A stretch of 64,000 bases of DNA from Gammaproteobacteria bacterium (GTDB lineage Bacteria; Pseudomonadota; Gammaproteobacteria; Burkholderiales; SG8-39), in the NCBI GenBank assembly GCA_041499655.1, contig JBGQKQ010000001.1, positions 255 through 64,254 of the forward strand, read 5' to 3'. The translations under genes were made by a program, and so were the position numbers. The notes below the pieces were generated by a model that saw only the letters and a program-made list of their open reading frames with translations, was not told the origin of the DNA and did not search any database. Shown here in pieces: positions 15,721 through 28,931 of the stretch (positions are counted from its first letter, which is position 1; every line of letters starts with the position of its first letter).

Positions 15721-18961
<3,241 letters not shown>

Positions 18962-18969
<8 letters not shown>

Positions 18970-20098
18970 GTCCGCGCTCCTCCATCATCTTCGCGAAGCG
19001 GTCGAAGAGGTAGCCGATGTCGTGCGGTCCGGGGCTCGCCTCGGGATGTCCCTGGAAGCAGAACGCCGGCCGGTCGGTGCGCGCAAGACCCTGGAGGCTG
19101 CCGTCGAAGAGCGAGACGTGGGTCGGTCTCAGGTTCGCAGGCAGCGTCGCCGGATCGACCGCGAAACCGTGATTCTGGCTGGTAATGACCACCGAGCCCG
19201 TATCCAGGTCCTTCACCGGGTGGTTGGCGCCGTGGTGACCGAACTTCATCTTCACGGTCTTCGCTCCCGAGGCGAGGCCCATGAGCTGATGGCCGAGGCA
19301 GATTCCGAACGTCGGAACGCCCGTATCCATGATTTCACGGATCGCGCGGATGGCGTAGTCGCAAGGCTCGGGATCGCCCGGTCCGTTGGACAGGAATACG
19401 CCGTCGGGCCTCGACGCGAGCGCTTCGGCCGCCGTCGTCTGCGCGGGAAGCACCGTCACCCGGCAGCCGCGCTCGACCAGCAAGCGCAGGATGTTGCGCT
19501 TCACGCCGTAGTCATAGGCGACCACATGGAAACGCGCGGAGCCGGCCTTGCTGAATCCCTCGCCCAAGCGCCAGCGCCCTTCCGACCATTCGTAGGGCCT
19601 GGCGGTGCTCACGACCTTGGCGAGATCCATCCCGGCGAGCCCGGGAAAGGCGCGCGCCGCCGCCAGCGCCCGTTCCGCGTCGTCGGAACCCGCGAGCAGC
19701 GCGCCGTTCTGGGCCCCCTTCTCGCGCAGGATCCGGGTGAGCCGGCGCGTGTCGATGCCGACGATCGCGGGCACGCCGTTCCCGGCCAGAAAATCCGGGA
19801 GACTGCGTTCGGCCCGCCAGCTGGAAGCTCTGGCGGGGATATCCCGAACCACCAGTCCCGCGGCGTAGACCTTGGCCGATTCCATGTCTTCGCCGTTGGT
19901 GCCGGTGTTGCCGATGTGGGGGTGCGTCAGGGTGACGATCTGGCGGCAATAGGAGGGATCGCTGAGAATCTCCTGGTATCCGGTGATCGCCGTGTTGAAA
20001 ACCACCTCCCCGGCGGCGAGGCCCGTCGCGCCGGCGGATGTGCCGCGAAACACCGTTCCGTCGGCTAATGCGAGCAGGGCGGGCGGGGTGACGGGCAC
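18962..20098 (-). CDS. carA: Carbamoyl-phosphate synthase small subunit
   Basis: GATase motif GICLGHQL. I prefer the GTG at 20098 ([19 protein letters not shown], 378 aa). The track ATG at 20164 would place a 15-bp-stem hairpin inside the coding sequence. Confidence 0.92.
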
Positions 20099-20126
20099 GG
20101 CGGAGGGCTCATTGGGGGCCAGATGT

Positions 20127-20162
20127 GCAGAGCGGGACCGGCTCACGCCGGTCCCGCTCTGC
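20127..20162. promoter_or_regulatory. Perfect 15-bp inverted repeat in the carA / histidine-kinase divergent intergenic region
   Basis: GCAGAGCGGGACCGG-ctcacg-CCGGTCCCGCTCTGC with no adjacent T-tract on either strand, 29 nt upstream of the preferred carA start. Confidence 0.45.
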
Positions 20163-20301
20163 AACCCGAAGAGTATATCGTTATTTCCCCGGCCCCATCA
20201 AACTTCGCACGCCGAACACGGATCGCTCGCGCACGGCACGGCATCGCTTGCCAAACCGTGCCAGAATTGGTGGTTCGCTATTCGCACGCCCGACGGAAAA
20301 C

Positions 20302-22056
20302 GTGGCCCAGTCGCGCACTTCCATCACCGCCCTGTCATCGGCCGAATTCCTGCCTCAGCGCGTCTCGCTGCTGTACCGGCTGGCGGGAAGCGACGTACCC
20401 GCCATTTTCATCGTTTCTGCCATCGCCGGCTTCGCCCTGTGGGGTTATATCAGCGATGCGCTCCTCGCGGCCTGGTTCATATGGCTGGTCGTGGCGAGTC
20501 TGGTACGCATCGCCCTCAACCGCGCCTACCGCTTGCGGCAGCCCGGCCCGGAAGGCGCGCAGCGCTGGGAAGGGTTTTTCTGCCTCGCCAGCGCTGGCGT
20601 GGGCGCGACCTGGGGCCTGACCGTTATGCTGCTCTATCCGGCGCACGGCCAGCTTCACGAGGTACTGATTCCGTTCCTCATCGGCAGCGTCGCGATGGGC
20701 CTGCCCCCCGCGCTCGCCCCCAGCCCCAGGGCCTTTGCCTGCCTGATCGTGCCGATCTTCGCACCCATGATCGGCCTGCTGTTTTCGCAAGGCGGGGATT
20801 TCAATACCTCTGCCGGGATCCTGATCCTGGTATTCGCCGCGGTGCTTCTCGCGCTCTACCTGTCCTCGAGTCGCGCGCTGACCGAGACCCTTCGCTTCGG
20901 CCAGGAAAACGAACGCCTGCTCGAACAGGTCAAGGAAGCCAAAGAGCGCCTCGATCTGGCGCTGCAGGCGGCCAACATCCTCACCTGGGACTGGGACGTA
21001 CGCCGGCGCGACGTCTTCCTGGGCGGCAGCTGGGCGATCATCCTGAGAGTGGGCAGGGAAACCACCGCCCTCACGCTGGAAGAACTGGCGCGTATGCTGC
21101 ATCCCGACGATCTTCCGAAAGTGAAGCAGGCACTGGCGCGATGCCTGAACGGAGGGGAGACCGAGTACATGGCAGAGCACCGCATCAAGACCCTCGCCGG
21201 GGGCTGGGTATGGAGTCTCTCCCGCGGAAGGGTCGTCGAGCGCGATGCGGACGGCAAGGCGGTGCGCATGACCGGCGTCAACGTGGATATCGATGACCGC
21301 AAGCGCGCGGAGGCCGAGCTGCTCGCCGCCGTGCAGCGCGAGAAAGAGCTGTCGGAGATGAAATCGAAATTCGTTTCCACGGCCTCGCACGAGTTCCGCA
21401 CGCCCCTCGCCACGATGCTGTCCTCGGCGGAGCTGCTCGAGCACTACTCCGAGAGCCTGGGCCAGGACGAAAAGCGCAACCTCCTGCAGACCATTCAGAG
21501 CAGCGCCAAGCGCATGAGCGAGATGATCGACGACGTACTCACGCTGGGACGCGCCGAGTCGGGCGTGCTCAAGCTGAACCTCGGCCCGACTAACCTGCGC
21601 GAGCTTTGCAGCCGGGTGGTTTCCGAGTTTCGCATCGCGCAAGGCAAGCAGCACGTCATCACCCTGGACGATCGCTTCGATCGCCTCGAAGCTTTGATGG
21701 ACGAACGCCTGCTGCGCCACATCCTGAACAACCTGCTGTCGAACGCGGTGAAGTATTCGCCGCCGGGTAGCGAGGTCACTTTTTCGCTCGAGCGGCGCGA
21801 CGAGAAGGCCGCGATCGAGATCCAGGACCGGGGAATCGGCATTCCGCCCGAGGACCAGCCGCGGATGTTCGAGAGCTTCCACCGCGCGTCCAACGTCGAG
21901 AATCGCCCGGGCACGGGCCTGGGCCTCGCCATCGTCAAGAAAGCGGTGGAGCTCCATGGCGGCGAGATCAGCCTGAAGAGCGCGGTCGGCGCCGGAACGC
22001 GGTTTACGATCGTGCTTCCGTTGCAGCCGGCGGACCAGCCCGCGAGGTTGAGCTGA
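20302..22056 (+). CDS. Membrane-bound PAS sensor histidine kinase
   Basis: Several N-terminal TM helices and a PAS-like segment (ILTWDWDVRRRDVF...HPDDLPKV...WVWSLSRGRVVERDADGKAVRMTGVNVDI). H-box SHEFRTPL, N/G boxes NLLSNAVKYS, DRGIGIP, GTGLGLAIV. The start is uncertain: GTG 20302 is preferred, and the track ATG 20125 lies inside the hairpin. Confidence 0.85.
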   Translation: MAQSRTSITALSSAEFLPQRVSLLYRLAGSDVPAIFIVSAIAGFALWGYISDALLAAWFIWLVVASLVRIALNRAYRLRQPGPEGAQRWEGFFCLASAGVGATWGLTVMLLYPAHGQLHEVLIPFLIGSVAMGLPPALAPSPRAFACLIVPIFAPMIGLLFSQGGDFNTSAGILILVFAAVLLALYLSSSRALTETLRFGQENERLLEQVKEAKERLDLALQAANILTWDWDVRRRDVFLGGSWAIILRVGRETTALTLEELARMLHPDDLPKVKQALARCLNGGETEYMAEHRIKTLAGGWVWSLSRGRVVERDADGKAVRMTGVNVDIDDRKRAEAELLAAVQREKELSEMKSKFVSTASHEFRTPLATMLSSAELLEHYSESLGQDEKRNLLQTIQSSAKRMSEMIDDVLTLGRAESGVLKLNLGPTNLRELCSRVVSEFRIAQGKQHVITLDDRFDRLEALMDERLLRHILNNLLSNAVKYSPPGSEVTFSLERRDEKAAIEIQDRGIGIPPEDQPRMFESFHRASNVENRPGTGLGLAIVKKAVELHGGEISLKSAVGAGTRFTIVLPLQPADQPARLS

Positions 22057-24122
22057 TGGACGCCCCGGCTCCGAAGAAAGTCCTCATCATCGAGGACGAG
22101 CCCAGCATCCGCAACAACATCATGCTGATGCTCAAGGTAGAGCGCTACGCCGCCGTCGGAGCCGAGAACGGCCGCGTCGGGCTCGAACTCGCCCGCAGCG
22201 ACCCGCCGGACCTGATCCTCTGCGACGTGATGATGCCGGAAATGGACGGGTTCGCCGTGCTCGAGGCCCTGCGCGCCGAGCCGCGCTTCGCCGAGATCCC
22301 GTTCATCTTCCTCACCGCGCTCGACGACCGATCCAGCATGCGCCGCGGCATGAATCTCGGCGCCGACGACTACCTTCCGAAGCCCTTCACGCGCAACGAG
22401 CTCCTGGAAGCGGTTAACAGCCGCCTGAAGAAATTCGAGACCCTGACCCAGGCCCTCGCCGCCAGGCTCGTCCCGGAGCAGGACCGGCTGACGCAGAAAT
22501 TCCGCGAGAAGATCCTGGGAGGCGACGGGTCCGCTGCTCTCGAGGACACCGACTCCGCGAGCCTCACCGGAAAGATCACCAACGCCACCGTCCTTTTCTC
22601 GGACATCCGCAACTTCACCACCTATTCGGAGCGGCTCACCAGCGACGAGATCGCGGAGCTGCTCAATGCCTATCTCGCGACCGCGTGCGCGCCCGTCATC
22701 CGCTACCGCGGCGTGGTGATGAAGTTCATCGGCGACGGAATCATGGCCTTGTTCGAGGGGTACCCGAACGAGAAAAGCGGCGATCACGCGCAGCGCGCAG
22801 TGCGCGCCGGCCTCGCCATGCAGCTCGCAGCGCTCGAGTTCCGCAAGTGGGTCGCCAAGCGCCATGCCTCCGGAAGCCTCCCCGAATTCTCCATAGGTGT
22901 CGGCATCCACACGGGCGAAGTCCTGCTGTGCCACGTCGGCGCCCCCGGTCGCGGCGAGCTCACCGTGGTCGGCGATACCGTCAACATCGCCTCCCGGCTG
23001 GAAGGCCAGACCAAACAGCTGGGCTGGGCGCTGGTCGCGAGTGACGTCACGTACAATCTGGCGCGCTCGGTGATCTCGGTCGGCTCGCAGCGGGAGGTGC
23101 AGCTGCGCGGACGCAGCGCGCTGGTCCAGGCCTACGAAGTGATCGGCATCGCGGCCAGTAACACCGACGACGTTTCAGTGCACATCCCCGAGGAGATGCG
23201 GCAGGCGCTCGCGGCGAACGCGAGAATCGCCGCCGAGGCGGCCAAGGCGGCCCTGGGGATCACCTTGAGCATCATGACCGGCGACCTCGGCGAGAAGCTC
23301 CTGTCGGTACAGGGCTACCGCGTGGTCTCGAAGATCGGTCGCGGCGGCTCCTCGGTGGTCTACCTCGCCGAGCGGGAAAGCGACCAGCAGCAGGTCGTCC
23401 TCAAGATCCTCGACGGCAGGGCCGGACTGGACGAGATCCTGCTGCAGCGCTTCGTGCAGGAATTCGACATCATCTCCTCGATCGACCACCCGAACGTGGT
23501 CAAGATCTACGACCGCGGCTTCAGCGACCGGCACGCGTATATCGCGATGGAGTACTTCCCCAACGGCAGCCTGGTCGAAGTCATCCGACAGGGCCTGAGC
23601 GGGCGGCAGGCCCTGTCGCTTCTGGCGCAGGCGGCAAGCGCCCTGCGCGAGGTCCACAATCGCGGAGTGATCCATCGCGACATCAAGCCCGGGAACCTCA
23701 TGGCGCGCGGCGACGGCAGCATCGTGCTCGCCGATTTCGGCATCGCGAAGCGCCTCGACGACAACCTGGGCCACACGCGGCATGGCGAGTTGTACGGGAC
23801 GCCCTATTACGTTTCGCCGGAGCAGATCGAGGGCAATCCGGCAACGGCGCAGTCGGACATCTATTCCCTGGGAATCATTTTCCACGAGATGCTGACGGGG
23901 CAGCGCCCGTTCGAGGCGGAATCGGTGTCGGGCCTCATCGCGCTGCACGTCAGCGCGCCGCGGCCGAAGCTTCCGGAAGCGCTCGCCGAGTACCAGACGC
24001 TCCTCGACCGGATGATCGCCGTCGATCCCCGCAAACGCTACAAGAACGCAGAGGAACTCCTCGAGGGCATCGACAAGGCGTGGACGGACCAGGCGGTGCG
24101 CGCGTTGAAGCAGACTAGCTAG
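22056..24122 (+). CDS. Response-regulator receiver / class III adenylate-guanylate cyclase / Ser-Thr protein kinase fusion protein (688 aa)
   Basis: Its ATG overlaps the kinase stop (ATGA). REC motifs: IIEDEPS, DLILCDVMMPEMDG, LTALDD, KPF. Cyclase motifs: FSDIRNFT, KFIGDGIMALF, GIHTGEV, GDTVNIASRLE. Hanks kinase motifs: GRGGSSVVY, VLK, HRDIKPGN, DFG, YVSPE. Confidence 0.9.
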   Translation: MDAPAPKKVLIIEDEPSIRNNIMLMLKVERYAAVGAENGRVGLELARSDPPDLILCDVMMPEMDGFAVLEALRAEPRFAEIPFIFLTALDDRSSMRRGMNLGADDYLPKPFTRNELLEAVNSRLKKFETLTQALAARLVPEQDRLTQKFREKILGGDGSAALEDTDSASLTGKITNATVLFSDIRNFTTYSERLTSDEIAELLNAYLATACAPVIRYRGVVMKFIGDGIMALFEGYPNEKSGDHAQRAVRAGLAMQLAALEFRKWVAKRHASGSLPEFSIGVGIHTGEVLLCHVGAPGRGELTVVGDTVNIASRLEGQTKQLGWALVASDVTYNLARSVISVGSQREVQLRGRSALVQAYEVIGIAASNTDDVSVHIPEEMRQALAANARIAAEAAKAALGITLSIMTGDLGEKLLSVQGYRVVSKIGRGGSSVVYLAERESDQQQVVLKILDGRAGLDEILLQRFVQEFDIISSIDHPNVVKIYDRGFSDRHAYIAMEYFPNGSLVEVIRQGLSGRQALSLLAQAASALREVHNRGVIHRDIKPGNLMARGDGSIVLADFGIAKRLDDNLGHTRHGELYGTPYYVSPEQIEGNPATAQSDIYSLGIIFHEMLTGQRPFEAESVSGLIALHVSAPRPKLPEALAEYQTLLDRMIAVDPRKRYKNAEELLEGIDKAWTDQAVRALKQTS

Positions 24123-24912
24123 CGGGTTCCCTCAGCCCCAGCACGTCCTGCATGTCGTACAGGCCGTTCCGCTTGCCAGCCAGGAAGCGCGCCGCTCTGA
24201 GCGCTCCCGTGGCGTAGGTAGCGCGACTGCTCGATCGCACGGTGATCTCGAGACGCTCGCCCTCGCCGGCGAACAGGACCGTGTGCTCGCCGACGATATC
24301 CCCTCCGCGAATGGCGTGAAACCCGATCGCCCTGGAATCGCGCTCGCCGACCTCCCCTTTTCGCCCATGAACCGCGTCGCGCTCGAGATCCCTGCCCAGG
24401 GCACGGGCGATCACCGCACCGAACCTGAGCGCGGTCCCCGAGGGTGCATCGATCTTGTGCTTGTGGTGCGCCTCGATGATCTCGACGTCGTAGCTCTCGC
24501 CCAGCGTGCGCGCGGCCGTCTCCGCGAGCGTGAATGCCAGGTTGACCCCCGCAGACATGTTCGGCGCCTGCACGATCGCGATCCGCTTTGCCGCTGACAC
24601 GATGTGCTCGCTCTGCCGTTCGGAGAAGCCGGTCGTCCCTATGACCATGCGCATTCCCTTGACCAGGCACTGATCGAGATGCTCGAGCGCGCCCTCGGGA
24701 CGGGTGAAGTCGATCAGGCAGTCGCCGTTCACGAACTCGCGGGAGATCTTCACGCCGCAAGGCAGCCCGACGAGCTCCCCTGCGTCCTTGCCGATCAGGG
24801 GACTGCCGAGAACCTCGACCGCCGCGGCGAGCTCGAGATCACCGGATCGCAACACGGATTCGATCAGGGCGCGTCCCATGCGCCCGCCCGCACCCGCGAT
24901 GACGACCTTCAT
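24115..24912 (-). CDS. dapB: 4-hydroxy-tetrahydrodipicolinate reductase
   Basis: 265 aa, MKVVIAGAGGRMG, EAHHKHKIDAPSGTA. Confidence 0.96.
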   Translation of the reverse strand: MKVVIAGAGGRMGRALIESVLRSGDLELAAAVEVLGSPLIGKDAGELVGLPCGVKISREFVNGDCLIDFTRPEGALEHLDQCLVKGMRMVIGTTGFSERQSEHIVSAAKRIAIVQAPNMSAGVNLAFTLAETAARTLGESYDVEIIEAHHKHKIDAPSGTALRFGAVIARALGRDLERDAVHGRKGEVGERDSRAIGFHAIRGGDIVGEHTVLFAGEGERLEITVRSSSRATYATGALRAARFLAGKRNGLYDMQDVLGLREPAS

Positions 24913-25247
24913 CCCCCGGTCTTTCCCGGAGCGGCAGCCACAGTATCTCCGTCCACGCGCTTCAGCTTGCCGTCCTCGAAAAATACCGCGATGCGACGAC
25001 GCTCGACCTCCCGGCTGTTGGCGCGCTGGCGCGAGAAAACGTAGTCCCAGCGCTCTTCATGGAAAATGTCGCTCACCAAGGGGGTGCCCATGACGAACCG
25101 CACCTGATCGCGGGTCAGGCCGGGCTTGAGCTGGGCGACCATCTCCTGGGTCACGTAGTTTCCCTGCTGGATTTCGATCCGGTAGGGTGTGAGCCAGCCG
25201 CAGGCCGCAGTAAGGAGCGACAAAGTGACGACCAAGGTTCGCGGCAC
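24909..25247 (-). CDS. bamE: Outer membrane protein assembly factor BamE (SmpA/OmlA)
   Basis: 112-aa lipoprotein (LLTAACG), Q.GN......V..L.PG.T..QV...MGTP pattern, with bamE-fur divergent synteny. Confidence 0.88.
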   Translation of the reverse strand: MPRTLVVTLSLLTAACGWLTPYRIEIQQGNYVTQEMVAQLKPGLTRDQVRFVMGTPLVSDIFHEERWDYVFSRQRANSREVERRRIAVFFEDGKLKRVDGDTVAAAPGKTGG

Positions 25248-25311
25248 GATCTTTCCACGGGGGCAAAACGCTATATGATAGCGGAAACGTCCTACCTCTC
25301 CGAAGCATCCC

Positions 25312-25749
25312 GTGACGAACGTTCATGACCTGAAGACCAGCGGACTGAAGGCAACCGGTCCGCGCCTGCGTATCCTCAAGCTGTTCGAGGACAGCAAGGT
25401 CCGGCACCTGTCTGCCGAGGACGTCTATCGGATACTCATCGGCGAAGGGTTGGACATCGGGCTGGCCACGGTATACCGCGTGCTCACCCAGTTCGAACAG
25501 GCCGGCATCCTCAAGCGCCATCATTTCGAGTCGGGCAAGGCGGTTTTCGAGCTGAACGAGGGCAGCCACCACGACCACCTCGTGTGCGTCACCTGCGGAC
25601 GCGTCGAGGAGTTCTACGATGCCGAAATCGAGAAGCGCCAGACCCGGGTAGCGAAGGAGCGCGGTTTTGCGATTCGCGACCATTCGCTGCAGCTCTACGC
25701 CGACTGCGTCAAGCCCAGTTGCCCCTACAAGGGCGGCCCGCGGACCTAG
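25312..25749 (+). CDS. fur: Ferric uptake regulator
   Basis: 145 aa, GTG start, [14 protein letters not shown]...[14 protein letters not shown]...[16 protein letters not shown]. Confidence 0.95.
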
Positions 25750-25927: not shown

Positions 25928-26800
25928 ATGGGCTTGAGACTGAAGTTCAATCTGGTACTTCTCTTCGTGTTCATCCTGGGGCTGGGCGTTTCCGGATACG
26001 TGTCCTACGACCTGCTCCACAAGACCGCGCGCGACGAGGTGTTGCGCAACGCAGGGGTGATGATGGAAGCGGCGCTCTCGATGCGCCAATACACCGTCAG
26101 CCAGGTACGCGACAAGCTTGCGCAGAAGGAAGGCGAGTTCCTACCGCAAAGCGTTCCCGCGTTCGCGGCGACCGAGATCATGAACCAGCTGCGCAAGAAA
26201 TATCCCGACTACGCGTACAAGGAGGCCGCGCTCAACCCCACCAACCCGCGCGACCGCGCGGTCGAGTGGGAAGCCGACATCGTCAATGCATTCCGCAACG
26301 ACACCTCCCGCGGCGAGATCTCCGGCACCCGTCTCACGCCCACGGGCATGTCGCTGTTTCTGGCGCGTCCGTTCCAGATCAAGGACCCGGCGTGTCTCGC
26401 CTGCCACACGACCGCCGAGATCGCTCCCGCGTCGATGGTGAAACTCTACGGGACCAACAACGGCTTCGGCTGGAAGCTCAATGAGGTCATCGGCGCGCAG
26501 GTCGTCTCGGTGCCGATGTCCCTGCCCATCCAGAACGCGAACCGCGCCTTCTACACGTTCATGGCCTCGCTGACCGGCGTGTTCGTGGTGCTGTTCATCA
26601 TCCTGAACTTCATGCTGTCGGTGATGATCGTGCGCCCGATTACCGTGATGTCGGATGCCGCGGACCGCATGAGCACCGGCGACCTGGAGATTCCCGAATT
26701 CGAAGAGTCCGGCCGGGACGAGGTGTCGCTGCTGGCGAAGTCGTTCAATCGCATGCGCCGCAGTCTCGAAAAGGCAATCAGCCTGATCGACCAGAAATAG
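25928..26800 (+). CDS. Haem-c sensor-like (DUF3365/Tll0287-like) membrane protein with a C-terminal HAMP domain and no output domain
   Basis: TM1 (FNLVLLFVFILGLGVSGYVSY). The periplasmic region shows P..PAFAATE, NPTNPRD...WE and a single CxxCH (ACLACH). TM2 (FMASLTGVFVVLFIILNFMLSVMIV) is followed by a HAMP-like RPITVMSDAADRMSTGDLE...LAKSFNRMRRSLEKA, and the protein ends a few residues later. Confidence 0.8.
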   Translation: MGLRLKFNLVLLFVFILGLGVSGYVSYDLLHKTARDEVLRNAGVMMEAALSMRQYTVSQVRDKLAQKEGEFLPQSVPAFAATEIMNQLRKKYPDYAYKEAALNPTNPRDRAVEWEADIVNAFRNDTSRGEISGTRLTPTGMSLFLARPFQIKDPACLACHTTAEIAPASMVKLYGTNNGFGWKLNEVIGAQVVSVPMSLPIQNANRAFYTFMASLTGVFVVLFIILNFMLSVMIVRPITVMSDAADRMSTGDLEIPEFEESGRDEVSLLAKSFNRMRRSLEKAISLIDQK

Positions 26801-26807
26801 CGTAGCG

Positions 26808-28199
26808 ATGACCGCCGAGATTGCTCTCCCCAGAGGCTATGCGCTGCTCGAATACCAAATCGAGCAGACCCTGGGGATCGGCGGTTTCGGCCTGACCTAT
26901 CTGGCGACCGACTCGAACCTCAACCTCAAGGTCGCGATCAAGGAATACCTGCCCGGCGATCTGGCGCAACGGGGCGACGACCAGTCGGTCAGGCCGAAAG
27001 CGGAAACGACTCTCGAGTCGTTCAAGTGGGGTCTGTCGCGGTTCCTGGACGAGTCGCGTACCCTAGCCTCGTTCCGCCATCCGAACATCGTTCGGGTCTT
27101 GCGCTTCTTCGAGGCAAACCGCACCGCCTACATGGTGATGGAGTTCGTCTCGGGACAGCCCCTGGGAGAGTGGATTCGCAGCCGCAGGCCGCTCGGACAA
27201 GGCGCCGTGCTCGGAATCGCCGGACCGCTGCTCGATGGGCTCGAACTCGTGCACCGCACCGGCTACCTGCACCGCGACATCAAGCCCAGCAACATCTTCA
27301 TGCGTGAAGACGGCTCGCCGGTGCTGCTGGACTTCGGCTCGGCGCGCTCGACTTCGTCCGGCGGAGAACTCACCGCGATCGTCACTCCCGGATACGCACC
27401 GATCGAGCAATATCACTCGCAGGGACAGCAGGGGCCCTGGAGCGATCTCTACGCGCTCGGGGGCGTGATGTACTGGATGATCACCGGCAAGAGGCCGGTC
27501 GAAGCCGTGGCGCGGGTGCGCCAGGACATGCTGCCTCCGGCGGCACAGGCCGCGGATCGCAACCGCTACAGTGCGGATCTGCTGGCCGCGATCGATTGGG
27601 CACTGACACCGCACGAGGAGCGCCGGCCGCAATCGGTGCCGGACCTGAGGGCCGCGCTGCCGGGGCTCGCAACCGCCGACCAGAAGACCGTGAAGATCGA
27701 GCCCTCATCCCCGGTCTCCGCTCCCCTGACCACGCTGCCGACCGGAGTGACGTTCGACAGGGAAACCCTGAAGAAGGTCGAAGCCGAGCTTGCCAAGCAC
27801 ATCGGCCCCATCGCGCCGGTCGTGATCCGGGCCGCCGCGAAGAGAACCTACACCGTCGCAGGCCTCGCGGAAATCGTCTCGGCGGATATCGCCGACGACA
27901 AAGAGCGCGCCGCGTTCGTCAAGAAATTCTCGGGCGACAAATCGGTACCCATGGGCGACCCTACCCTGGCGCGCGCCACGCAGTCCGTGCCGTCGAATAT
28001 CGACCCGCAGACGCTCGCCAGGGCCGAAGCGGCGCTCGCCAAGTACATCGGCGCGGTCGCCAGAATCGTCGTGAAGCGCGCCGCCGCCAAGGCGCGCGAC
28101 CCCGGAGAGCTCTACCTGCTGATCGCCGAGGAAATCGAGGACAAGAACGAGCGGAAGGCTTTTATTCGCAAGGCCATCTCCGCTTCCGGCAAGGAATAG
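26808..28199 (+). CDS. Soluble Ser/Thr protein kinase with a tandemly duplicated C-terminal helical module
   Basis: Kinase motifs GIGGFGLTY, VAIKEY, HRDIKPSN, DFG, TPGYAPIEQ. The C-terminal repeats are ETLKKVEAELAKHIGPIAPVVIRAAAKR...DDKERAAFVKKF and QTLARAEAALAKYIGAVARIVVKRAAAKA...DKNERKAFIRKA. Confidence 0.88.
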   Translation: MTAEIALPRGYALLEYQIEQTLGIGGFGLTYLATDSNLNLKVAIKEYLPGDLAQRGDDQSVRPKAETTLESFKWGLSRFLDESRTLASFRHPNIVRVLRFFEANRTAYMVMEFVSGQPLGEWIRSRRPLGQGAVLGIAGPLLDGLELVHRTGYLHRDIKPSNIFMREDGSPVLLDFGSARSTSSGGELTAIVTPGYAPIEQYHSQGQQGPWSDLYALGGVMYWMITGKRPVEAVARVRQDMLPPAAQAADRNRYSADLLAAIDWALTPHEERRPQSVPDLRAALPGLATADQKTVKIEPSSPVSAPLTTLPTGVTFDRETLKKVEAELAKHIGPIAPVVIRAAAKRTYTVAGLAEIVSADIADDKERAAFVKKFSGDKSVPMGDPTLARATQSVPSNIDPQTLARAEAALAKYIGAVARIVVKRAAAKARDPGELYLLIAEEIEDKNERKAFIRKAISASGKE

Positions 28200-28214: not shown

Positions 28215-28430
28215 CTACTTCGCGTACTTGAACGACAGCAGCACGCGCGTCCGGTAAGCCGCGACCTTGCCGTTTTCGATTTTCATGTCCTGCTTCACCA
28301 CTTCGGCAACACGAAGGTCGCGCAATGTCTTGGACGCGGTTTCTACGGCCCGCTTCGCCGCGTCCTCCCACGATGTCGTGCTCGTGCCGATTACCTCGGT
28401 GATCCGGTAGACTCCGTCAGCTTTGGCCAT
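28215..28430 (-). CDS. Dodecin-family flavin-binding protein (71 aa)
   Basis: The ATG at 28430 gives MAKADGVYRITEVIGTSTTSWEDAAKRAVETASKTLRDLRVAEVV..., a typical dodecin pattern. The rest of the 190-aa track ORF is an extension. Confidence 0.85.
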   Translation of the reverse strand: MAKADGVYRITEVIGTSTTSWEDAAKRAVETASKTLRDLRVAEVVKQDMKIENGKVAAYRTRVLLSFKYAK

Positions 28431-28490
28431 CGATCGTCTCCTTCGGTAGGTGTCGCCCTGTTCACGGGGGCGTTCCCGGATAATACTCCA

Positions 28491-28931
28491 ATGGATTTGA
28501 TTCTCTGGCGACACGCGGAAGCCGAGGACGGCAGCCCCGACTCCGCGCGAAAGCTGACCAGGCACGGCCGGGACCAGGCGCGACGCGTCGCGGCCTGGCT
28601 GAAGCCGTGTCTCCCGAAGCGCTGCGAAGTTCTGGTGAGCCCCGCGACCCGCGCCCAGGAGACGGCCTCCGCGCTTGGTCTCCGGTTCGAGACCACCGCC
28701 GCGGTCGGCACGAACGCGATTGCCGCGGAGGTCATTGCGGCGGTCGGCTGGCCGACGCGCCCGAAGGCGGTATTGATCGTCGGGCACCAGCCCACGCTCG
28801 GCCGCGTCGCCGCGTCACTGGTTTCGGGCGTGGAGGCCGACTGGCATCTCGCCAAGGGCGCAGTGTGGTGGTTGCGGCACGTCGACGGCGAAACCCGGCT
28901 CTTCGCCGTCATGCATCCGAAGCTGGCCTGA
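28491..28931 (+). CDS. sixA: Phosphohistidine phosphatase SixA family
   Basis: 146 aa with ILWRHAEA (RH catalytic motif), LVSPATRAQET and VGHQP. Confidence 0.85.
   Translation: MDLILWRHAEAEDGSPDSARKLTRHGRDQARRVAAWLKPCLPKRCEVLVSPATRAQETASALGLRFETTAAVGTNAIAAEVIAAVGWPTRPKAVLIVGHQPTLGRVAASLVSGVEADWHLAKGAVWWLRHVDGETRLFAVMHPKLA

Follow-up and report, generated by a model that had tools for sequence, protein, structure and literature searches.

A histidine kinase gene overlapping the gene for a receiver, class III cyclase and Ser/Thr kinase fusion protein in a soil betaproteobacterium

Introduction

A response regulator whose output is enzymatic usually has a single such output. The locus described here raises the question of whether a single regulator, through a single phospho-acceptor aspartate, could govern two: the synthesis of cyclic AMP (cAMP) and Ser/Thr phosphorylation. 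It lies in a 64,000-nucleotide stretch of DNA from a soil betaproteobacterium (contig JBGQKQ010000001.1 of GenBank assembly GCA_041499655.1, positions 255 to 64,254; hereafter the window), and consists of a gene for a membrane histidine kinase followed on the same strand by a gene for a 688-amino acid regulator. An original prediction, made by a model from the sequence alone, had described the second gene as a triple fusion of receiver, class III nucleotidyl cyclase and Hanks-type Ser/Thr kinase that is translationally coupled to the first, and had stated that no characterised example of such a protein was known to it.

Results

The regulator carries three domains with complete catalytic residues

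The open reading frame (ORF) list holds the regulator gene as it had been described, with an ATG start and 688 codons. The gene and the domains and linkers of its product are as follows.

22056..24122, + strand: REC-cyclase-kinase response regulator gene, 688 amino acids
22080..22418, + strand: receiver (REC) domain, residues 9-121; Response_reg PF00072, E 1e-27, 97 bits against a cut-off of 30.2; AlphaFold predicted local distance difference test score (pLDDT) ~95
22419..22574, + strand: REC-cyclase linker, residues 122-173; a long helix, then a variable low-confidence stretch that is gap-rich in the family alignment
22575..23123, + strand: class III (IIIb-type) nucleotidyl cyclase, residues 174-356; Guanylate_cyc PF00211, E 1.5e-17, 64.3 bits against a cut-off of 21.9
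23124..23315, + strand: cyclase-kinase linker, residues 357-420; helix 379-407 before the kinase, with family-conserved residues
23316..24062, + strand: Hanks-type Ser/Thr kinase, residues 421-669; Pkinase PF00069, E 1.5e-51, 175.7 bits against a cut-off of 31.7

The triple fusion was borne out by the Pfam comparison that the original prediction had itself proposed, with all three domains above their cut-offs, and neither of two failings it had named as fatal, a profile that does not match or a lost catalytic residue, was found in any of them. Every catalytic residue that we checked is present in the REC, cyclase and kinase domains, and the motifs that had been quoted all lie where they had been placed in the ORF. 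The regulator is built only from well-known domains, and in a scan of the whole protein no NCBIfam model reached its cut-off.

The expected N-terminal receiver is present, and combines its profile score with an acidic pocket (E13 and D14), the phospho-acceptor D57, T87, Y106 and K109, carried in the motifs IIEDEPS (11-17), LILCDVMMP (53-61), FLTALDD (85-91) and LPKPF (107-111). Its best NCBIfam match is the PleD family.

Cyclase motifs had been expected at about residues 175-345, and the Guanylate_cyc match at 174-356 contains all of them: FSDIRNFT (181-188), KFIGDGIMALF (223-233) and GDTVNIASRLE (306-316). Together they provide the two metal-binding aspartates D183 and D227, the phosphate-binding R185, the substrate-binding pair K223 and T303, and the transition-state residues N310 and R314. 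The best solved relative is the catalytic domain of Pseudomonas aeruginosa CyaB (3r5g, E 8.8e-26), and all seven residues are identical to it in the alignment, whereas the guanylyl cyclase Cya2 (2w01), found in the same structure search, has E and G at the positions of K223 and T303. A Lys/Thr pair is the mark of class IIIb adenylyl cyclases, while Glu with Cys or Gly goes with GTP, and the K223/T303 pair therefore predicts a class IIIb adenylyl cyclase with ATP as its substrate. We also considered D307, the aspartate of GDTVN, as the residue that sets nucleotide specificity and rejected it, as this role is filled by T303, which stands seven residues before N310 and is the equivalent of mammalian Asp1018.

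The C-terminal part, for which a full Hanks set had been claimed at about residues 420-688, matches Pkinase at 421-669 and holds the complete series of residues through to the subdomain XI arginine. These are the glycine-rich loop at 428-433 (G428 to G431), K450, E469, H540-R541-D542, K544, N547, DFG at 560-562 (D560), SPE at 587-589 (E589), D601 and R661, within the motifs GRGGSSVVY (428-436), VLK (448-450), HRDIKPGN (540-547), DFG and YVSPE (585-589). Its best solved relatives are StkP (6e-47) and PknB (2e-39). The exact window protein carries the JGI name "serine/threonine-protein kinase PpkA". PpkA belongs to a type VI secretion context and has a von Willebrand A domain C-terminal to its kinase, and we rejected this name because Pfam found no such domain and the gene has no type VI secretion neighbours, being set instead among carAB, dapB, bamE and fur.

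The regulator gene overlaps the gene of a membrane histidine kinase

The upstream gene was confirmed to encode a membrane PAS-HisKA-HATPase kinase, and its features, with the junction to the regulator gene, are listed below.

20302..22056, + strand: sensor histidine kinase gene, 584 amino acids, GTG start; six-transmembrane N-terminal region, PAS_3, HisKA and HATPase_c
20395..20862, + strand: membrane region of the kinase, residues 32-187; six hydrophobic segments in a Kyte-Doolittle scan
21064..21282, + strand: PAS_3, residues 255-327; Pfam E 5.7e-18
21358..22026, + strand: transmitter core, HisKA at residues 353-421 (Pfam E 3.6e-18, 65.8 bits) and HATPase_c at residues 467-575 (4.8e-34, 117.6 bits)
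22044..22058, + strand: coupling junction; GAGG at 22044-22047, 8-nucleotide spacer, TGATG

Both transmitter profiles are accompanied by the H-box SHEFRTP at 362 (His363), the N-box NLLSNA at 477, and the G1 and G2 boxes DRGIGI at 509 and GTGLGL at 537, while residues 1-250 matched no Pfam family at E<=0.01. The start at 20302 is well supported, because six related loci carry the GTG at the matching place in the alignment, and in five of these in-frame stops lie a few codons upstream of it.

At the junction (GAGCTGATGG) the TGA stop of the kinase gene (22054-22056) and the ATG start of the regulator gene (22056-22058) share one base, and the Shine-Dalgarno-like GAGG, 8 nucleotides before the ATG, lies within the kinase gene. 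The overlap is thus the single nucleotide of TGATG and not the 4-nucleotide ATGA that had been claimed, but the tight translational coupling itself holds, with the same junction in the close loci.

The carB-carA-kinase-regulator-dapB-bamE-fur block is kept in the seven closest loci, with the CTGATG junction identical in all seven. Three loci of distant lineages (L017, L037 and L044) also have a histidine kinase gene whose stop overlaps the regulator start, here as ATGA, which brings to 10 the loci where the stop of a HisKA kinase gene and the start of the regulator gene overlap in this conserved way. By tblastn the kinase core of L017 and L037 is 46-49% identical to that of the window, while the kinase of L044 is short and 27% identical; in L017 and L037 the sensor part differs from that of the window, being soluble with two PAS-like segments recognised by eye. 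The overlap is thus conserved while the sensor attached to an orthologous transmitter core can be exchanged, and in comparative terms this is good evidence that the histidine kinase and the regulator form a cognate pair.

The fusion is rare but belongs to a conserved Burkholderiales family

The original prediction had left open how rare the architecture might be. When 1.84 billion 50%-identity representatives were searched exhaustively with HMMER, ~30 proteins of 650-730 amino acids were found that are 32-49% identical to the window protein and collinear with it over residues ~8 to ~670. This bears out rarity, but the protein is not a one-off, and the family is Burkholderiales-wide. A word-indexed search of 5.8 billion proteins found at least 120 clusters at 90% identity that are 65-93% identical to the query, nearly all with the same three Pfam domains and, where a source is given, from uncultured metagenome-assembled genomes labelled "Burkholderiales bacterium". 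Among GTDB species representatives, full-length orthologues (37-49% identity, most of them 43-49%) occur only in Burkholderiales or unclassified Proteobacteria metagenome bins. Cultured hosts, with orthologues of 43-49% identity, include the Comamonadaceae Caenimonas koreensis DSM 17982, C. sedimenti, Ramlibacter albus, R. humi, Ramlibacter sp. WS9 and Polaromonas aquatica. The exact window protein was already in NCBI and IMG, and orthologues are named "protein kinase", "protein kinase domain-containing protein" or "Response regulator" in RefSeq and UniProt. The fusion is rare in absolute terms, yet represents an old, conserved Burkholderiales family deposited with generic annotation.

In the close clade, which holds at least 113 clusters at 90% identity and was examined as 113 relatives at 65-93% identity plus the query, active sites are intact in 113/114 receivers, 114/114 kinases and 105/114 cyclases, with mean identities to the query of 92%, 86% and 77%, respectively. 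All seven cyclase residues are kept by 16 of the 29 full-length species-representative orthologues, including those of C. koreensis, C. sedimenti, R. albus and Ramlibacter sp. WS9. Cultured orthologues with all sites intact are those of Caenimonas koreensis DSM 17982 (WP_153584935.1), Ramlibacter albus (WP_187081979.1) and Caenimonas sedimenti, the last with an adjacent kinase. Because its clade keeps the REC, kinase and cyclase sites, the window protein belongs with those family members in which each of the three centres appears functional.

Other arrangements of these domains were also seen. Among a few longer forms that the HMMER search also returned, P0158 (958 amino acids) and P0163 (795 amino acids) have two receiver domains as well as the cyclase and the C-terminal kinase, and L046-L055 and L057 contain receiver-less pseudo-cyclase-kinase genes. 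In those of Ramlibacter (L048 7851-13845, L057 8001-14120 and L046 6388-10067) the first metal aspartate and the asparagine are replaced, and the genes are followed by a second kinase gene and then by a cluster of chemosensory appearance (PilG-like receiver, CheY-like, CheA-like and methyl-accepting chemotaxis proteins, by eye). In L046 the receiver-less gene stands in tandem with a full REC-cyclase-kinase gene.

Predicted helical linkers between the three domains

AlphaFold2, run on the family alignment, gave a monomer model with three confident domains (mean pLDDT 82.9, predicted template modelling score (pTM) 0.45). In this model helix alpha5 of the receiver runs on as one helix from 113 to 155, with confidence dropping past ~135, and the low-confidence segments are 148-169 (pLDDT <50), 403-414 and the activation loop at 564-579. 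Before the kinase, helix 379-407 has the family consensus R-x-A-L-x-x-N-x-x-x-T-A-R-A-x-K-x-A-L. Its asparagine, N388 (23217..23219), is near-invariant: at least 90% of the 28 divergent representatives keep it, members with a decayed cyclase site included, and this motif may be a coupling element.

A proposed dual-output mechanism and its alternatives

To account for these features we propose a two-component system with a dual-output regulator, to which we give an even chance. In this scheme the membrane PAS histidine kinase (20302..22056) would phosphorylate Asp57 of the regulator (22056..24122), and phospho-D57 would alter the dimer or the register of the helical REC linker, so assembling a competent class IIIb adenylyl cyclase dimer. 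That dimerisation would also place the C-terminal kinases side by side for trans-autophosphorylation of the activation loop (563-584, with T573 and T581), and one stimulus would thus yield cAMP as well as Ser/Thr phosphorylation. The active sites of class III cyclases span a dimer interface, and these enzymes work only as head-to-tail dimers; it is because of this need, and because the REC alpha5 helix extends toward the cyclase, that we propose a dimer or register switch. Phosphotransfer, ATP specificity, dimer switching and joint control of both outputs are what we infer here, and control of both outputs by one aspartate is plausible. A broader version, in which a single phospho-aspartate turns on both activities in a homodimer, the cyclase-homology dimer couples the receiver to the kinase, and the family is a series of repeated decays of one centre to a pseudo-enzyme, is more tentative, and we would expect it to fail somewhat sooner than to hold.

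Several observations weigh against the proposed two-component, dual-output scheme. When 27 collinear representatives and the query were aligned, the catalytic sites were kept to very different extents across the 28 sequences.

Kinase catalytic set: intact in 25/28
Receiver Asp: intact in 24/28
Full cyclase set: intact in 11/28

Only 18 of the 28 still have a cyclase domain that Pfam recognises, the other ten no longer matching Guanylate_cyc though collinear (for P0173, for example, only REC and Pkinase are recorded). Genes that join a receiver to a kinase with no cyclase between them occur in Ramlibacter sp. Leaf400 (L056 8001-9308) and in a Gammaproteobacteria metagenome-assembled genome (L079 7992-9242). 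The family thus shows that cyclase activity is dispensable in many relatives, and since its site is often decayed and cyclase-less forms exist, the fusion can work without cAMP synthesis; the 11/28 against 25/28 makes it less likely that the fusion has been conserved for the sake of a dual output. In addition, most Comamonadaceae orthologues lack a neighbouring histidine kinase gene, and the genes that flank these orphans (NAD-binding dehydrogenase-like and TldD-like, judged by eye from N-terminal sequence) give no functional clue. A Pfam scan of ten ORFs near the locus (14377-36822) found no cyclic nucleotide-binding, FHA or PP2C protein, and a monomer model with the above pTM gives no inter-domain geometry.

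The decay of the cyclase site, the lost Guanylate_cyc matches and the cyclase-less forms would favour a protein that is in effect a receiver-controlled Ser/Thr kinase, with the cyclase domain serving mainly as a dimerising transducer and cAMP absent or irrelevant, and the lower conservation of the cyclase even among close relatives (77%, the kinase having 86% and the receiver 92%) agrees with this. Nevertheless, the window protein shares all seven of its cyclase residues with CyaB, an active enzyme, and the 92% of close-clade sequences that keep all seven far exceed the ~17% (~0.77^7) expected if these positions varied at the domain average, and we consider this alternative unlikely, although a serious one. 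The position of the intact cyclases counts in favour of the dual-output scheme: on a neighbour-joining tree of the REC and kinase columns, which is rough and carries no bootstrap, intact and degenerate cyclases are interleaved, and this suggests that an active cyclase is ancestral in the family and that there were several independent losses. The converse, that the protein is primarily a receiver-controlled adenylyl cyclase whose kinase domain is an ATP-binding or autophosphorylating regulatory module and not an independent output, we find improbable. In P0128 and P0143 the cyclase site is indeed intact and catalytic residues of the kinase are lost, so that a kinase-like domain without catalysis is tolerated, and a kinase-homology domain paired with a cyclase is established in receptor guanylyl cyclases (one of which, PDB 9bcv, matched the cyclase domain). 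The domain order is however opposite to that of the receptor enzymes, and a kinase set that is invariant in 114/114 close relatives and intact in 25/28 distant ones exceeds expectation for a purely allosteric module. An artefact, whether frameshift, mis-assembly or a shadow ORF joining separate genes, might be suspected in a window of 64% G+C with many long spurious ORFs in other frames. This is refuted by the coding statistics, the G+C content at third codon positions of the ORF being 0.89, as is typical of real genes here, and by the recurrence of the same collinear 680-700-amino acid protein in more than 110 independent assemblies and in RefSeq isolate genomes.

Neighbouring genes

The pair lies in a housekeeping block at 15721..25749 comprising greA, carB, carA, kinase, regulator, dapB, bamE and fur, with nuo genes, secG, tpiA, glmM, folP, ftsH and rlmE farther upstream (most gene names were given by eye). 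Seven metagenome-assembled genomes of soil Burkholderiales keep the whole block, with protein identities of 76-97%. The ten ORFs scanned with Pfam are housekeeping genes only, and other nearby ORFs were recognised by synteny and similarity. The 3' end of the regulator gene (stop at 24120-24122) overlaps that of the convergent dapB (24115..24912, - strand) by 8 nucleotides (24115..24122), leaving no room for an intergenic terminator, and a promoter and terminator scan of 19900..24500 found no plus-strand sites.

A second signalling pair (25928..28199, + strand) lies ~1.8 kb downstream of the regulator. Its first gene, 25928..26800, encodes a 290-amino acid Tll0287-like protein with a HAMP domain and no output domain, and its second, 26808..28199, starts 7 nucleotides later and encodes another Hanks kinase (Pkinase at 16-274) whose C-terminal ~130 amino acids form a tandem repeat of ~60 amino acids (LAKHIGPIAPVVIRAAAK / LAKYIGAVARIVVKRAAAK) with no Pfam match. 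The two may constitute a split sensor/kinase pair. The Tll0287-like sensor gene is present in L001, L040 and L027; L003, L005 and L006 lack it, and in these the kinase comes directly after fur. Beyond this pair, a 190-amino acid ORF at 28215..28787 (- strand) matches Dodecin only at residues 126-188, and its true start is probably well downstream of the first start codon.

Discussion

The finding is one at the level of annotation: a response regulator with two predicted enzymatic outputs, made only of textbook domains. The claim that no example had been characterised agrees with the literature we searched, in which no REC-cyclase-Ser/Thr kinase protein was found, although mention in an earlier census is possible; the search turned up only kinase-then-cyclase fusions (Myxococcus Pkn2, PMC1262709) and REC-cyclase and REC-GGDEF systems.

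CyaC is known to be activated by phosphotransfer. CyaB, whose metal Asp pair, Lys/Thr pair, Asn and Arg are those of the regulator, is a membrane MASE2-cyclase with no REC and no kinase domain. Precedents for the N-terminal half are cyanobacterial CyaC and Dictyostelium ACR (PMC3009899), which like the regulator place a REC directly upstream of a class III cyclase, and the Spirulina CyaC cyclase (PDB 1wc0, 4e-20) is of the same Lys/Thr (IIIb) type. Unlike the regulator, however, CyaC and ACR have no Hanks kinase, and their histidine kinase is in the same chain, whereas here it has its own gene, to which that of the regulator is translationally coupled.

Myxococcus Pkn2 (PMC1262709) and the TOMM kinase/cyclase family TIGR03903 resemble the regulator in that one polypeptide holds both a Ser/Thr kinase that looks active and a domain homologous to class III cyclases, but in the reverse, kinase-then-cyclase order, with no receiver and with extra transmembrane or AAA/TPR parts. 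Membership of TIGR03903 was considered and rejected, because the regulator scores 165.1 bits, far below the cut-off of 705.75, and only its kinase part aligns.

With PleD and DgcR, which are REC-GGDEF proteins, the regulator shares a receiver, a helical linker and a nucleotide cyclase that must dimerise, whereas these proteins have the GGDEF fold, make cyclic di-GMP and have no second enzymatic output. DgcR is switched by a phosphorylation-dependent rearrangement of the REC dimer and helical linker (PMC8041772), and by analogy a switch of this type would be the best-supported model for the regulator.

Animal receptor guanylyl cyclases (NPR-A and GC-C) likewise combine a kinase fold, a helical linker and a class III cyclase and work as dimers, and members of the regulator family share with them the pairing of an enzyme with a pseudo-enzyme. 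In NPR-A and GC-C a dead kinase fold lies N-terminal to an active GTP cyclase, whereas in the regulator the input is a phospho-Asp receiver and the cyclase, with its Lys/Thr ATP signature, precedes a C-terminal kinase that has all of its catalytic residues. Across the regulator family it is the kinase that is the conserved enzyme and the cyclase that usually decays, a mirror image of the receptor guanylyl cyclases.

Unusual domain combinations are common in soil bacteria, which limits the weight of the finding. If the dual-output reading is true, the regulator would be a direct physical junction of the His-Asp phosphorelay, cAMP and Hanks-type phosphorylation, systems that are usually studied apart, and a bacterial, reversed-order counterpart of the pseudokinase-cyclase pairing in animal receptor guanylyl cyclases. 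The system is tractable through its cultured orthologues with all sites intact, and the natural variants of the family, with both enzymes active, with a pseudo-cyclase or a pseudo-kinase, or with the cyclase or the receiver deleted, could reveal how a cyclase-homology dimer signals to a kinase.

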